Assembly (NCBI GenBank): GCA_951406725.2
Contig: OX597831.1
Location: forward strand, 47,368,001 to 47,432,000
Length of the DNA stretch: 64,000 nucleotides
From: Octopus vulgaris
Taxonomy: Eukaryota
Direction: 5' to 3'
Shown: positions 6,086 through 58,960 of the stretch, in pieces
How positions within the stretch are numbered: position 1 is the stretch's first letter
How the letters are laid out: every line of letters begins with the position of its first letter
Position numbers and translations under genes: made by a program
The notes under the pieces: generated by a model
The model's database searches: none
Seen by the model: the letters and a program-made list of their open reading frames with translations, nothing else
Told to the model about the DNA's origin: nothing

Positions 6086-6100
6086 TGTTATATATATATA

Positions 6101-6180
<80 letters not shown>

Positions 6181-6181
<1 letters not shown>

Positions 6182-6600
6182 ATTATTATTATTTGAGGGA
6201 ATAAAATCCAAACTTACAAGGAAAAAGAATTCAATTTAGAAATACTAAATCAAATTCCACACAATATAATATATATAAAATATTAGAAAAAAACCCACCT
6301 CAATATGAATAATTAACTTACACCATCTAGAAAATTACATATAATAAAAAAGTTAAAATTAAAATAACAATTAAAAAGTAAAGATTAAGTAAATTACAAG
6401 AATAATATAATGTATATAATAGGTAGTTTTTCTACCTATTATATACATTATATTATTCTTGTAATTTACTTAATCTTTACTTTTTAATTGTTATTTTAAT
6501 TTAAACTTTTTTATTATATGTAATTTTCTAGATGGTGTAAGTTAATTATTCATATTGAATTGATAAAAGGTGTTTTTTTTTCTAATATTTTATATATATA
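6181..6600. mobile_element. AT-rich fold-back element (Penelope pLTR-like), same family as 57751-58960
   Basis: 127-bp arms 6300-6426 and 6432-6558 with a 5-nt loop; embedded in (TA)n; alignable by eye to 57751-58035. Confidence 0.7.
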
Positions 6601-6882
6601 TATATATATATGGAGCAAATAATTCAGGAGAAAATGTTTGCAAAGGTATTATTGACTCTGTTATTATTTAGTGTAACAATTAAAAAAAATGATAATAACA
6701 GAATCCAATAATAACTGGCAATTGCAGGCCCAAAAAGTATTAAATAGCTTGATTTCTATAGTTATCATCTTTTTTTTTTCGGTGATTTAAATAAGAGTTT
6801 TGACTGTTATTTCCAGCAGGTAAGCATACCTAGTATGTCATTCGATTAATTTTAATCCTTCAGCTATTTACATATATCTATA

Positions 6883-14400: not shown

Positions 14401-17400
14401 TCCTGTCTGAAGAGATTCACGAGGACATGTATAGAGTTCTAAATTTTAAGTGCATTTTTTTAATGTATCAAACTACATCTTTTTAATCCATGTAATTCAT
14501 ATAGCCTCATAAGGACAGAACCTCTCAGAGGCCTTTAATCCATCATCTTCATTATACATTTACCACATTGCATTGTGAGAGCCCCTACATGGTTGCTCAA
14601 CTTACTAGAAGTAGCATCCATTTCTTTCTTTTTAAGCCCTCCACTCCCTATCAATCATAGGCCATCGGCAACTTTCTGCTCTGTTCTCAAATTTAGGGTA
14701 TCTTTTCTGCTTCTCTCCAGCTGGATCCCTTATTTTTCAGCTCTGCCTTAGTGTCCTGTCTCCAGCTATTTTAAGAACATTTTCTCTTCCATCTTCTTTT
14801 GGTTTCCCTAAGGGAAGGCCTTCCTTTCCCAGGTCTTGCTAGTTTGGGATTATCATTGATGCTTCTGTAACTTTCCTTTTTCACTAGGTAGGGGTGTTAG
14901 CCCAATGCAAACCCATTTTTACCTCTGGCAAGATGTGGTCCATATCATCCTGGCCTCCATCCTTTGATATGTCCAGTATGGAGAGGTCCTACCTGGAGCT
15001 TGTGCCCCACTAACATAGCTCTCAGTGTCATCAAAGCACACAAACCATCATGCCGCAACAAGGACTGGACTTGATGGTCATGGTTGGAATACCTTTGATC
15101 AGTGTTGATCTGTACCTAAAAAAAAATATCAAAATAATCTGGGTGTTATTTTTAAGTATTGTATTATTTGATTTTAAGTAATGACTGTAATTTTTATTTT
15201 ACTGTAATTTGAGAAACTATTATTGTTTTTAAATCTAATTCCAGATCAGGATATTGATGACAATATTATGTCAGAGGAATTTTATAATGAAGACAATAGT
15301 CCAAATTTAAATTTAGTAAAGTCGCCGTCGTCTGGAGATGAGACCAGTTGGATTACTGTCAATATGGATTCATCAGTTAATTCAAATGAAACTGTGCGAT
15401 CAATTTCAAAAAGCCCATCTCAAAGTAGTCTTTCAGAAGAAATTTTTACAGATACCAGTAAATTTTATAGCTCTTGTACAGTATGTGGGCAGCCATTGGA
15501 CAGTGTAGAGAAAATGTCTTCCTTTGAAGATACATGTTCCGGTAAAGAAAGTTCTGTTGAGCATTTTTGTACTTGTTTTCATTCCTTGTCTTCTGAAGTT
15601 GTGAGTCCTACCAAAGTAGCACAACTGCAATTAAATGGTGTTAGCTCTTTGAGCCCACCTCTAAAAACTCATTTGTTCCATCCTGAACATTCTGGACACA
15701 AAAAAATTAGTGATGTAATGGAGTATTCTCTAATGGTTAATCAATTTGGTAATGGAAATTTGTCTCAGTTAGGAGGAATGCAGAGTTCTTCAAAAGACAG
15801 TGAATTAAATTTGGAAGATATTGCTGCTGCTGTGGCAGAGGCTGAAGCCAAAAGATTTCAAACTAATGTCTTTAAATCGGATCTTATCAGTTCTGGTCTC
15901 TCCCTTGATTGGAATTCACCAGATGTACAAAAGCAGATCAACTTCATTGATTTTCAAGCACAGGTGAGTAAAGAATTCACTTAATGGTTCTGTCAATAAA
16001 TTTTATTTACTGACAGGTACAGGTATGGCTGTGTGGTAAGAAGTTTATTTCTCGGTTACATAGTTTCACGTTCAGTCCCACTGCATGCACCTTGGATAAG
16101 TGTCTTTTACTATAGCCTTGGGCTGATCAAAGTCTTATGACTGGATTTGGCAGACAGAAACTGAAAAAAGCCCATCAGGTACGTACGTGTGTGTGTGTGT
16201 GTGTGTGTTACTGTTTTCTTGCCTTGACTTTACATGAGAGTCATAAATGAGTGTCATTGTCATGCAGGTAGTGTCCTTCATTTCTAATGCTTCGGGAAAA
16301 CGTCTGGTCATGGGGAATATAACCAGGTGAATGTTAGTGACAGGAAGGGCATCCATCCATAAAAAAATTTTGCTTCAACATATTCCATCTGACCCATGCA
16401 AGCATAGAAAATTGGACGTTAAGATAATGATGATGATGATGATGATGATGATAATAGTTAAATGCTTCTTACTGGAAGTAGAGAATATTTGTTTTTGTTT
16501 AACCCCAACTCAATCTTAATTGAATAGAACTGTGATTGAAGACAGGCATTCAAAGAATGAAATTTTCTATAGAAATAGCAAAATCTGAACTGGTAGAAAA
16601 CAAGAGCAGAATACGAAATATGCAAACAAGTAAGATCTGTCGCTCTCTGACAGGTTTATGGTTGAGCCTGTGGTAGTGGAGACCTCTGGTGTCCTTAGCC
16701 CCTGAACCATATCCATGCTCACCACTATTAGGGTGGAGATGGCTATCTGCAAGTGCAAGCCCCTTGAGTCAGAGTGGGTGTTCCAGTGTAACTCCCTTAC
16801 CATCCTCCGGGGCAATGTCTTTTCCATTCTGTCTGTCGGGACCATGAAGCAGTCTGAATTACAGGAAATGGCAAGAATCTAAGAATTTCGAAACTTATTA
16901 TGCGAACAATAAAGTTACACTAGCACTTCTCAATGCAGAGAAGTAGTGGCTTGGTCTTAGTAAGACAGGTTAGTTGGTTGGTGTTGGGTAGGGATCAGGT
17001 GGGTGTTACTGTTGTTGACCTGGAATGCTTTTGATTGTAGGTGTGTTTGTTTTGATCATAGGTTTAACTTTCACCTAGGTCTAAGCAGTAACCACAACAA
17101 TGGCAGCTGATACTTTATCAACCACAAAGGATAAAGGGAAAAGTTGACATCAGTAGAACTGTGAATAGAAAATGTAAAGAGATAATAAGTACAATGCATT
17201 TCTGGTTGAGTAGACCTATGCTTAAAAACCGCATTCTAACTGTGGCCATCCTGCCTTTAGAGACAATAAGTCTCAGATTACCTTCTTTTCTACTCTAGGC
17301 ACAAGGCCCAAAATTTTTGGAGAGGGAGCTAATTGATTAGATCAACCCCAATATGTAACTGGTACTTAATTTATCGACCCTGAAAGGATGAAAGGCAACT

Positions 17401-33791: not shown

Positions 33792-36700
33792 TATATATAT
33801 GACGGGCTTCTTTCTGTTTCCATCTACCAAATCCACTCACAAGGCTTTGGTCAGCTCAAGGCTTTAGTAGAAGACACTTGCCCAAGGTGCCACGCAGTGG
33901 GATTGAACCCAGAACCATGTGGTTCGTAAGCACGCTACTTACCACACAGCCACTCCTATGCCTTTGACTATTATAACTTACCATTTTCATGTATTGTCAT
34001 CATTTGATGTCCACTTTTCCATGTTTACATGGATAAGATGAATTGGGTGAGGCAAATTTTTCTATAGCTGGATGCCCTTCCTGTTGCCAACCCCCATCGG
34101 TTTCCAAGCAAGGTAATATTTTACCTTAGACATGGAAGACTGGAAATGAACAACCTCACTTGTATGACAATGGTGCACATGTAATGTCTAAACGAGCTTA
34201 CACCCACACTTATACATGTGTGTGTGTGTTACCTACTATTGTAATAATGATATCTATGGTAGAAAATCTAAAAAATTTTACAGATGTATTTTGTCAGTGA
34301 AATTGGCCACAGTACTTGACTTTTACTTTATTTGATTTACTATTAGAGAATGAATGGCAAAGCCAACTTCAGCTGGATTTGAACTCAAATAGTAAAAGGC
34401 TATGATCAAATACTGCACAGTATTGTTGCCTGAGACTCTAACAAGTCTGCCAACATCTAATCTTGATCTCTAACATTGACACAAAACCAGATAGTATACT
34501 TGATTAATTGGGCACAGTATTGACTAGTATTTTAGCTTATCTACCCAGGATGTTCTGCTTCATTTATCCTATGTTTGATTAATTATTGATATTGGCAGCT
34601 GGCCAAATCAATACAGTATTGGTTATTTGGCAGAAGAGTTGGTGGTGCATATCCTATCAGATTCACTGCTTTTAGTGTTAGGTAACTTAATTCTCATTGA
34701 CCCAATTTTCTAGTGTTAAAGATACTGCTGCAGTGTTAGGTTGTTGCTACACATTGTTGGTATATTTTACAATGGACAAGCTTTTGGGTTTTTTTTTTAT
34801 TGTTGTTTCGTACCAGGTCAACCTGATCAAGCAGACCAATGATCAGAGCTGGTTTTAAGCCAGTTAGGTTTGCTCAAATTGGGTCCTACTTCAGGAGAGG
34901 GCCCTGCACATACACACTCAAGCAGAAGATACTATGATGTATTTGTAGTATGACATTATAGCTAATGGTGTTATGGTGGAGCCTCAAGCCCTCAACCCAT
35001 TTTGACCGGGACTTGCATACTACACAAAACATAAAACATCAACTCATCAGCTTTTGTAGAGAAGAGAGCTCCACAATTCGCTATTTGGGCTCCCACACTT
35101 TCTATCACCCTCCTTGCCTATGATCAAAGGCGTTCTGGCCCTGACCTCCAATCCTTCCCCCAGGCACAGCATTTCTAGCCTTATCCAATATGTTTTTCCA
35201 TTTTTCAAATGGTAGCATGTGGTTTGAGGAAGATTTGACTACTATTTCTAACAGATTGAGTGACTGCATAGAGTGACTGAACTTATATATAATCCTTCTA
35301 TAGACCTGGAGAAGATAATGGAAAATGATTCCTTTGTATTTTATTTTAAATGATGTGAAGATAATGTATTTAATTTTGTTGTAGCTGTCCCATTGGCTTT
35401 CACTATTCCTTTATTAATAACTTCTTAACCTTTATTCCTTGAAATGTTATATAATACAACATGCTTGTATTAGCATGGAAAAAATATGGCCATATTTTTT
35501 CCCCATACCTGTTAGCTCTGACGAGCACATGATATTATATAACTGTGAAGTAATCTAACAGCTGTTTTAATGCGCTGTGTGAAACCAATTGGTAAGATCA
35601 GCTGTAATGGACATATAATTCTGTACACGGAATAACACATTGACTTTATTGACAAAATATACATTGAATACTTTTTCTGACTTATGGGTTCTTAGATGAC
35701 TATATGTGTGTGTGTATGCGTGTGTGTATGTATACGTGTGTGTGTATATGTATACATATATCTGTATTTATTTATGTGTGTGTGTGTGTGTGCATGTGTG
35801 TAGATGAATGGACGGACACAGACACACACACATACTTCCACTCAGTTTCCATTTATCCTCCATGCCGGTGGCACATAAAAAGCACCATCCGATTGTGGCC
35901 ATTTCCAGCCTCGTCTGGCCCCCATGCCGGTGGCACGTAAAAAGTACCATCCGATCGTGGCAGTTTGCCAGCCTCGTATGGCAACTGTGCAGGTGGCACG
36001 TAAAAAACACCCACTACACTCACGGAGTGGTTGGCGTTAGGAAGGGCATCCAGCTGTAGAAACACTGCCAGATCAGACTGGGCCTGGAGCAGCCCACTGG
36101 CTTTCCAGACCCCAGTTGAACCGTCCAACCCATGCTAGCATGGAAAACGGACGTTAAGTGATGATGAAATTCTCTCACAAAACATCAATCAGCCTAGGGT
36201 TATATAGGAAGATACTTGCTCAAGTTACCATGCAGTGGCACTGAACAAGAAACCATGTGGATGCCAAGTGAGCTTCTTAACCACCAAACAACCCTCCACC
36301 CACACACATACACACACAGCAAAAGAAATTGGTAGCTCTCTTGTATTTGTGTTTCAGAATAATAAAGACTTGCAACCAACTCATATCTGATATAAAACAG
36401 TGACGATAATCCCTTCTGAGTACTTCATATCTTACTTATTAGCTTGGCTGGTATAACTAAGTGGAGTAAAGTATATTTAATCCTTGAGATATTAAATGAA
36501 TCTAAAATAAGATCAAATATACAAGAAAAAAATAAAATTAATGTTAGTGGTGATTAATGTAAATCTTAGCACCTGCAAGTAGGGGAGATAACTTAGAATG
36601 TTTCACTTTTATTAGAATTATCTATTTTTTTACTACCCACAAGGGGCTAAACACAGAGAGGACAAACAAGGACAGACAAACGGATTAAGTCGATTATATC

Positions 36701-57750: not shown

Positions 57751-57753
<3 letters not shown>

Positions 57754-57827
57754 GTTATTTTAGGGAATATTATTCCTAACTTAGAGGGAAAAATTCAATT
57801 TAGAAATACCAAATCAAATTTCACAAA

Positions 57828-57874
<47 letters not shown>

Positions 57875-58960
57875 TAGAAACAAACACCTTTTATTAATTC
57901 AAAATGAACAATTAAATTACACCATCTAGAAAATTACATATAATAGAAATATTAGAATTAAAATAACAGTAATATACCGATGATTAAGTAAATTGCAAAA
58001 AAAATAATAAAAACGTATATATTTGGTAGAATAACGACACATGTTTTGTGGCTATATTTAAAAAATGATTATAGTAAAAAAATTAATAGTAGTAGTAAAA
58101 TCACTTCGATATAAATATAGCCACTCATCAGGTTAAAAATAAACTAGAATAATAAAATAATTAATTAATAAATATACTTTAATATATATATATATAAGAT
58201 ACTAAATATACATTAAGTGAAAACTAAAACCAATACTTAAATTATTCAATACTTTATAATTAATTAATATACACATTGCTAGTACAAGCCATTAATATTG
58301 TAATTAAAATAAGAAATGGTTCAAATGTAGACAAACTCATTAAATAAGCTAACTATATATTTAATATATATGTGTGTAGTATCTATAGATTTAATATATC
58401 ACTCTATAATATAGTTGACTAAATATCAATTAATATAATACTTAATTATCTTAAATTTAATACTACTTAATAAATATACCACCTAATAATTAAATAATAT
58501 ATTCATCATCATCATCGCTTAATGTTCCTTTTTCCATGCTAGCATGGGTTGGACGGTTCAACTGGGGTCTGGGAAGCCAGAAGGCTGCGCCAGGCCCAGT
58601 CTGATCTGGCAGTGTTTCTACAGCTGGATGCCCTTCCTAACGCCAACCACTCCATGAGTGTAGTGGAGTGCTTTTTACGTGCCACCTGCACAGGTGCTAG
58701 ACGAGGCTGGCAACGGCCACAATCGGATGGTGCTTTTTTACGTGCCACCGGCACGGAGGCCAGTCGGGGCAGCGCTGGCAACGGCCACATATTGTCTAAC
58801 AAAATTCATTCTCAAATTAAATTAAATGTAATATGTTAGATCCCTTTATTAAATTATTATTTTAATTTTAATATTTCTATTGTATGTAATTTTCTAGGTG
58901 GTATAATTTAATTGTTCATTTTGAATTGATAAAAAGTGTTTTTTTTTTTCTAATTATATA
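57751..58960 (-). mobile_element. AT-rich Penelope-like element with hammerhead and inverted terminal copy, interrupted by a SINE
   Basis: About 57870-57968 is repeated inverted at about 58853-58960; hammerhead at 58032-58135; (TA)n flanks. Confidence 0.6.
58032..58135 (-). ncRNA. Degenerate type I hammerhead motif with long helix II
   Basis: Minus strand reads UAAC CUGAUGA GUGGCUAUAUUUA...UAAAUAUAGCCAC AAAAC AUGU GUC GUUA. G12A is compatible with CpG decay. Confidence 0.65.

Follow-up and report, generated by a model that had tools for sequence, protein, structure and literature searches.

The 127-bp hairpin that lies near 6 kb in the window (the whole 64,000-nucleotide stretch of Octopus vulgaris DNA that was analysed) consists of two short copies of a Penelope element end joined head to head, the 5' end of their template RNA having probably been made by hammerhead cleavage after GUC. 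Most of the sampled copies of the same family have their ends at or just short of the predicted cut, and judged from the genomic copies it is likely that they record cutting by the ribozyme in the germ line. The structure of the insertion is itself a known Penelope type, what is new is the family-wide position of the ends at the cut and a route of formation through two cDNAs.

In the proposed route the protein of the element would nick both strands of a (TA)n target and prime two cDNAs, one from an outer start site, with the Penelope tail, and the other from an inner site, without it. Both would then extend to the 5' end of the cleaved RNA, after which the 3' ends of the cDNAs would lose 0-25 nt by trimming and be joined head to head by microhomologies of 1-4 nt, often with short templated insertions. 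At the 6-kb locus a full-length tail-less cDNA, reaching +1 (positions are numbered such that +1 is the first base after the predicted hammerhead cut), may have met a tailed cDNA at +7 through one shared G. Nicking and extension of both strands, and two reverse transcriptase (RT) start sites flanking the tail, are described in vitro for an anole element (PMC11167929). Counting against the proposal, metazoan Penelope hammerheads are described as cleaving poorly in vitro (PMC4209133), and no RNA-seq reads are reported to end at the cut of the anole element (PMC11167929).

Anatomy of the hairpin and identity of its element

A sequence-only reading of the window had described the hairpin at 6300..6558, aligned it with the region 57751-58030, placed in the 58-kb copy a minus-strand hammerhead with a predicted cut between 58036 and 58035, and put the start of the second arm at that same nucleotide, 6426; all of this is borne out (Table 1). 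The arms 6300-6426 and 6432-6558 pair at 126 of 127 positions, the sole mismatch being 6355/6503, and the palindrome extends further still, across the 10-nt deletion of the left arm, to (TA)n at ~6270 and ~6600. Identity to the 58-kb copy is 214 of 249 aligned positions for the left arm and 157 of 183 for the right (~86% each), the 6-kb copy being of a different subfamily. Copies of the 6-kb subfamily that span the ribozyme read GTC followed by GTTTTTCTACC (37 exact pattern matches), and when one of them (L150) is taken as the reference the right arm agrees at 173 of 184 aligned positions and starts at +1, the first base past the cut in its own subfamily, with the left arm starting at +7. G6426 is common to both arms, a microhomology of 1 nt, and the letters before it, GTA, come from the left arm and match uncut GTC at two of three positions, so the 6-kb junction alone cannot separate a cut from an uncut template.

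The tail is likely to be the stretch between the two RT start sites, and the microsatellite that adjoins the insertion is likely to be its target site; a bias towards (TA)n targets is noted for Neptune and Naiad elements (PMC8557442). Elsewhere in the window, a 258-aa open frame on the plus strand (15208-15984) resembles a host exon.

Table 1. Features of the 6-kb and 58-kb loci, in window coordinates
Feature	Position	Strand	Basis or detail
(TA)n/(CA)n microsatellite adjoining the insertion	6090..6180	.	
Penelope tail, ~80 nt, left arm only	6181..6262	-	alignment; PMC11167929, PMC8557442
Left (tailed) arm, reaching from +7 past the predicted cut to internal (TA)n	6263..6426	-	10-nt deletion near 6299
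Near-perfect 127-bp palindrome	6300..6558	.	direct pairing of arms
Right (tail-less) arm, from G+1, first base past the predicted cut, to (TA)n	6426..6611	+	
5-nt loop TTTTT	6427..6431	+	template positions +2..+6 of the right arm's subfamily; non-random
Sister copy of the other subfamily	57751..58500	-	reads through the ribozyme; has tail
Type I hammerhead motif	58032..58135	-	predicted cut between 58036 and 58035
Third family piece, tail-less, starting near +65	58849..58960	+	inverted relative to the 58-kb copy

The 6-kb hairpin represents a 5'-truncated, head-to-head insertion of a Penelope element of Neptune/Nematis-like type, from a family whose 27-nt motif has 2389 exact matches in the genome. 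Long copies of the 6-kb subfamily (L248, L249) contain an inverted repeat and an ORF that is broken, together with a long 3' region, two tandem repeats and the tail, and the pieces of their ORF are 61-80% identical per segment to the intact 838-aa ORF of a sister family and lie in the sense of the ribozyme. [quoted passage not shown] The naming of the two domains rests on YRDD and VVY..VYIGST, seen by eye in the translations, which we take to be the RT and GIY-YIG motifs; Pfam and PDB searches returned no RT or endonuclease match. A cysteine linker precedes GIY-YIG in the intact sister ORF, with a degenerate version in L169, and it is because such a zinc-finger-like linker between RT and endonuclease distinguishes Neptune and Nematis (PMC8557442) that the element is assigned to this type. 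The 3' region between ORF and ribozyme in L168 and L169 is unusually long, ~2.5 kb of AT-rich sequence with short opposite-strand frames, and in three long copies a donor-like GTGAGT is conserved at ~2.1 kb upstream of the ribozyme.

Other identities were considered. An ORF antisense to the ribozyme was given up when RT and endonuclease turned out to lie in sense. A non-LTR retrozyme would consist of tandem units with whole ribozymes, and the 6-kb insertion is without a ribozyme and inverted rather than tandem, whilst a MITE or foldback DNA transposon would have a fixed palindrome and here the junctions and arm lengths vary among loci.

The ribozyme is of type I, with a CUGANGA / GAAA / NUH core, three stems and the open end in stem I. 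The sequence-only reading had relied on a consensus with CUGAUGA and GAAA, and amongst 51 copies, which came from a motif search that itself demanded core-like sequence, CUGAUGA is present in 48, GAAA in 45, GUC in 44 and G10.1-C11.1 in 48. Pair 2 of stem II is U-A in 39 of these and C-G in 7, which is one compensatory pair. Stem I has just 3-4 bp, which counts against the ribozyme reading; an Rfam scan of the window and four loci gave no hammerhead match, and minimum-energy folds recovered the long stem II and no hammerhead fold. In the 58-kb copy the parts are stem I (UAAC/GUUA), CUGAUGA at 58131-58125, the long stem II at 58124-58048 and a palindromic stem III, with C17 at 58036 and G+1 at 58035 on the minus strand. 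The ribozyme of this copy is probably dead, because GAAA is changed to AAAA at 58047. The third family piece of Table 1 is situated upstream of the 58-kb copy at a distance of ~350 bp, a different repeat standing between them (58526-58666, found a second time at 36011-36151), and may be the partner arm of the 58-kb copy, split off by a later insertion.

Two further observations concern hammerheads elsewhere. The terminal repeat is duplicated in tandem, as a 411-bp unit with one ribozyme motif per unit, in L248:8163-8886, L166 and L167, an arrangement that suits dimer cleavage. Other hammerhead-like motifs with a long stem II occur in unrelated repeats, in L250 (~6420 nt from its reverse start; 7612, 8206, 8884) and at L260:8410.

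Formation of the inversion

It is apparent that the tail is confined to one arm. Exactly one arm is tailed in 40 of 42 hairpins, 13 of which come from a query-biased hairpin search, and none has two tails; the sister family gives 27 one-tailed inverted pairs out of 27. The tail-less arm reaches further 5' in 21 of the 40 one-tailed hairpins (the 6-kb hairpin included), the tailed arm in 16, and the arms are equal in 3. If a target-primed, tailed cDNA simply folded back, the loop would always be expected on the tailed arm; at the 6-kb locus it is the tail-less arm that has +1..+6, opposite an arm with the tail. No tail can arise by copying a strand that has none, hence simple fold-back fits poorly. 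Two cDNAs placed head to head would account for the one-tail rule as well as for the short microhomologies and for the insertions seen at many junctions, and on the arrangement of the arms we think it fairly probable that two end-joined cDNAs fit the inversion better than simple fold-back does. The sequence-only reading, in which a self-cleaved RNA was copied to its ribozyme-defined 5' end and the cDNA then folded back and primed itself, can probably be kept for its first part, given the family-level pile-up at +1..+26, the spike at +1, the background rate upstream and the lack of a cap-type G described below. The second part fares badly, with the tail-less arm the longer in so many one-tailed hairpins, that at 6 kb amongst them.

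A version of fold-back can be kept for the inversion step if the tail is afterwards cut off either strand by the endonuclease, at the internal (TA)n, and it is only with this additional trimming that it is viable. Self-priming is proposed for such palindromes (PMC3846280), and shared variants speak for it: one variant common to both 6-kb arms occurs at 11 places in the genome, these arms accounting for two, compared with 2389 for the usual letter, 8 of the 42 hairpins have a private variant in both arms, and sister-family arms of one insertion are mostly of the same RNA class. Shared variants could, however, come from one template RNA or later gene conversion as well as from fold-back with later trimming, and the divergence within arms relative to the nearest other locus was left unused, being biased by the taking of a minimum. 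The lengths of the arms and the 8-61-nt insertions at many junctions weigh against self-priming, which we regard as unlikely, though it keeps some real weight. The preferred route for the inversion is still that of two cDNAs.

Ends of family copies relative to the predicted cut

The ends were surveyed in the first 100 of the 2389 motif matches in genome order, the motif lying ~96-100 nt downstream of the cut, which left 82 loci after pairs were merged and one duplicate removed. Per base at risk there are 20/5053 ends at +96..+27, 51/1073 at +26..+1 and 4/971 at -1..-111, so that the rate at +26..+1 is 12-fold above that on either side (Fisher p about 1e-10 against -1..-111; the loci were drawn largely from the first contigs, with some duplicated loci and shared sources among them, so that copies are not fully independent). 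Of the 62 loci that reach +26, 51 end at +26..+1, and the junctions are not spread at random along the consensus, as the sequence-only reading needed them not to be. Counted by arm, 62 of 101 have their end at +1..+26 and one has it at -1; no arm stops at -2..-46, and ten go further upstream before ending. A search with the hairpin itself as query gave 80 matches, from 40 loci that were without exception hairpins of similar apex, and being query-biased was kept out of the end statistics.

At single-base resolution a hand tally was made of the first 100 of 223 matches to the 6-kb subfamily and the first 100 of 924 to the 58-kb-type subfamilies, both anchored at +8. In the former 41 copies end at +8 (a count that both the anchor and TA microhomology with the target inflate in this tally), 10 at +2..+7, 12 at +1 and 1 at -3, with 36 reading through; the corresponding figures for the latter are 21, 12, 5, 1 and 61. 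Over both sets, exact +1 ends make up 17 of the 116 copies that reach +1, and ends at -1..-9 are 2 of 99. A script applied to 60 of the 200 tallied rows agreed with the hand tally, save for two diverged read-through copies. TT precedes the G in 9 of the 17 +1 ends, possibly as untemplated additions or as a target motif. Four +1 ends that were directly inspected (L131, L189, L202, L231) join target-like flank and have no partner arm; all four are preceded by ATT, which would be either untemplated additions or an endonuclease target motif. Self-complementarity as a cause of +1 junctions fails to explain such single, non-hairpin ends.

Some of these figures count against the cut. Most ends lie at +5..+26 and not at +1, which means a trimming step is needed, and read-through among copies reaching +8 is 36/100 in the 6-kb subfamily and 61/100 in the 58-kb type, a difference between subfamilies that may reflect ribozyme activity. 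A spliced exon joined at +1 was also considered and rejected, there being no AG there and 17 different upstream sequences.

The sister family provides a control. It is young, with intact ORFs and a different hammerhead that has U-A at the base of a short stem II, and 97 of 100 copies reaching +6 read past its own predicted cut, which also counts against the cut reading. The 88 sister arms, which represent 59 loci, include 36 that depart from the genomic sequence at -44..-51, 20 with ends at +1..+27 and 6 with ends at -3..-40. The break near -48 is a splice junction between an AG acceptor and a 23-nt exon, the end of which, at a GTAAGT donor, lies over 1.1 kb upstream, and 28 of 29 such arms copy 23 nt or less of the exon. 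Near the exon start, 71 matches to spliced sister copies divide by hand tally into 51 that end at the first A, 7 that read on and 13 that are one base short. An extra, non-genomic G stands in front of 34 of the 51 first-A ends, compared with 2 of the 17 +1 ends in the window family (p = 1.4e-4), and both of the latter are explained by the partner arm. We read the extra G of the sister family as copied from the cap, with the edge marking the 5' end of the RNA; the short sister copies are spliced cDNAs whose ends lie at an initiator-like transcription start. The rarity of the extra G at +1 ends, relative to the sister start, favours an uncapped, ribozyme-made end for the window family.

The spliced short sister copies are found in L252-L333 and L364-L393 (e.g. 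L279, L288, L319), whilst in long copies the intron is still present. Intron retention is a known trait of Penelope elements, which makes spliced copies worthy of note. Several intact Penelope ORFs of 820-860 aa, with an asparagine-rich stretch between RT and endonuclease, are present in L252:2206-4719 and L253-L262, and the family that carries them is likely to have been active recently.

The edge in the window family might also be a transcription start that happens to coincide with the predicted cut, with short copies made from capped RNAs starting at +1 or +2. The sister edge is such a start and is about equally far from the tail, a spacing that would fit a promoter or length explanation as well, and TCG+1TT resembles an initiator. 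No spliced exon upstream of the window family's ribozyme was found among the first 100 of 524 matches or in the long copies, and a Penelope terminal repeat is described as having an internal promoter (PMC2377424). A capped G+1 nevertheless predicts the extra G that is so seldom seen at the +1 ends, and it would be a priori unlikely for a start to coincide with the cut at single-base precision. Transcription starts follow a pyrimidine-purine rule, and this disfavours a start at U+2 with a cap-derived G, which the extra-G test would itself allow. A start site at the cut is on balance improbable.

Stalling of the RT at a folded but uncut ribozyme, for which cleavage would be unnecessary, is slightly more improbable again. 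Stems I and III flank the site, and the broad cluster at +1..+26 could be the product of stalling and trimming. The far more stable 12-bp stem II should block harder, yet only 1 of 11 loci that pass +1 ends at -1..-26, with isolated ends near -11/-12 (L051, L193, L226), and C at -1 was copied in none of the 17 +1 ends. An origin of the hairpin as an artefact of assembly, or as a single master palindrome spread as a unit, is scarcely credible: none of the contigs listed from four independent runs bridged the 6-kb apex, but such contigs do show opposite-strand joints of the family, the arms differ by one mismatch, a 10-nt deletion and the one-sided tail, the flanks differ, and junctions vary from locus to locus. 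An RNA end made by the hammerhead cut is thus the reading we retain.

Significance and comparison with known elements

Whether Penelope hammerheads cut in vivo, and to what purpose, is stated to be open in passages of PMC4209133, PMC8557442 and PMC11167929, the first of which states that there is no in vivo evidence of cleavage. A family that stops at the predicted cut, together with a sister that stops at a capped, spliced start, offers a natural positive case and control, and the strict one-tail rule turns the long-known inverted ends into a testable two-primer model. The natural sequences for a cleavage assay can now be named by family. Taken jointly, the family may hold a nucleotide-resolution genomic record of Penelope hammerhead cleavage in the germ line, in which most transpositions end as short dead-end stubs, and all Penelope inverted ends may be two cDNAs primed at start sites flanking the tail and each extended to the RNA's own 5' end, be this the ribozyme cut (here) or a capped spliced start (the sister family); we hold this wider statement to be evenly poised between true and false. 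The findings suggest that the ribozyme limits the element rather than helping it, and if the wider statement is true the read-through rate of each subfamily measures in vivo ribozyme activity over evolutionary time. A literature search found no paper that maps Penelope insertion ends to the hammerhead cut or that uses twin priming for them; subscription papers, one paper on dimer cleavage and the supplement of PMC11167929 (anole genomic ends, which may bear on novelty) were outside its scope.

A close likeness, going by the passages of the papers that were compared, is to insertions of EN+ Penelope-like elements (PMC3846280, PMC8557442), which share the head-to-head arms, the tail on one arm, the palindromic junction and the microsatellite targets, and which likewise have RT followed by GIY-YIG with a cysteine linker. 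In those passages the junctions are not mapped to a hammerhead cut, the tail is 30-40 nt rather than ~80, and self-priming is proposed where two cDNAs fit better here. The type I hammerheads of Penelope pseudo-LTRs (PMC4209133) have the same CUGANGA/GAAA core, short stem I and palindromic stem III suited to dimer cleavage, but differ in stem II, which is ~75 nt here.

Poseidon of Anolis, PAc (PMC11167929), is also alike in having one RT start site on each side of the tail, in the nicking and extension of both strands, and in a ribozyme that lies upstream of the start sites. For PAc uncut RNA is the main substrate in vitro, whereas most of the genomic copies sampled here have their ends at the cut or just past it. 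R2 elements with an HDV-like ribozyme (PMC3774820) provide a parallel in that cleavage determines the 5' end of their template and 5' junctions form through chance microhomology, although both the element class and the ribozyme are different and the cut frees a full-length RNA, compared with the 170-250-nt dead-end copies found here. The metazoan non-LTR retrozymes (10.64898/2026.07.22.740005) are, like the copies here, short non-coding pieces related to Penelope terminal repeats; they are tandem and keep the ribozyme, whereas the stubs described here lose it and are tied to an autonomous ORF.
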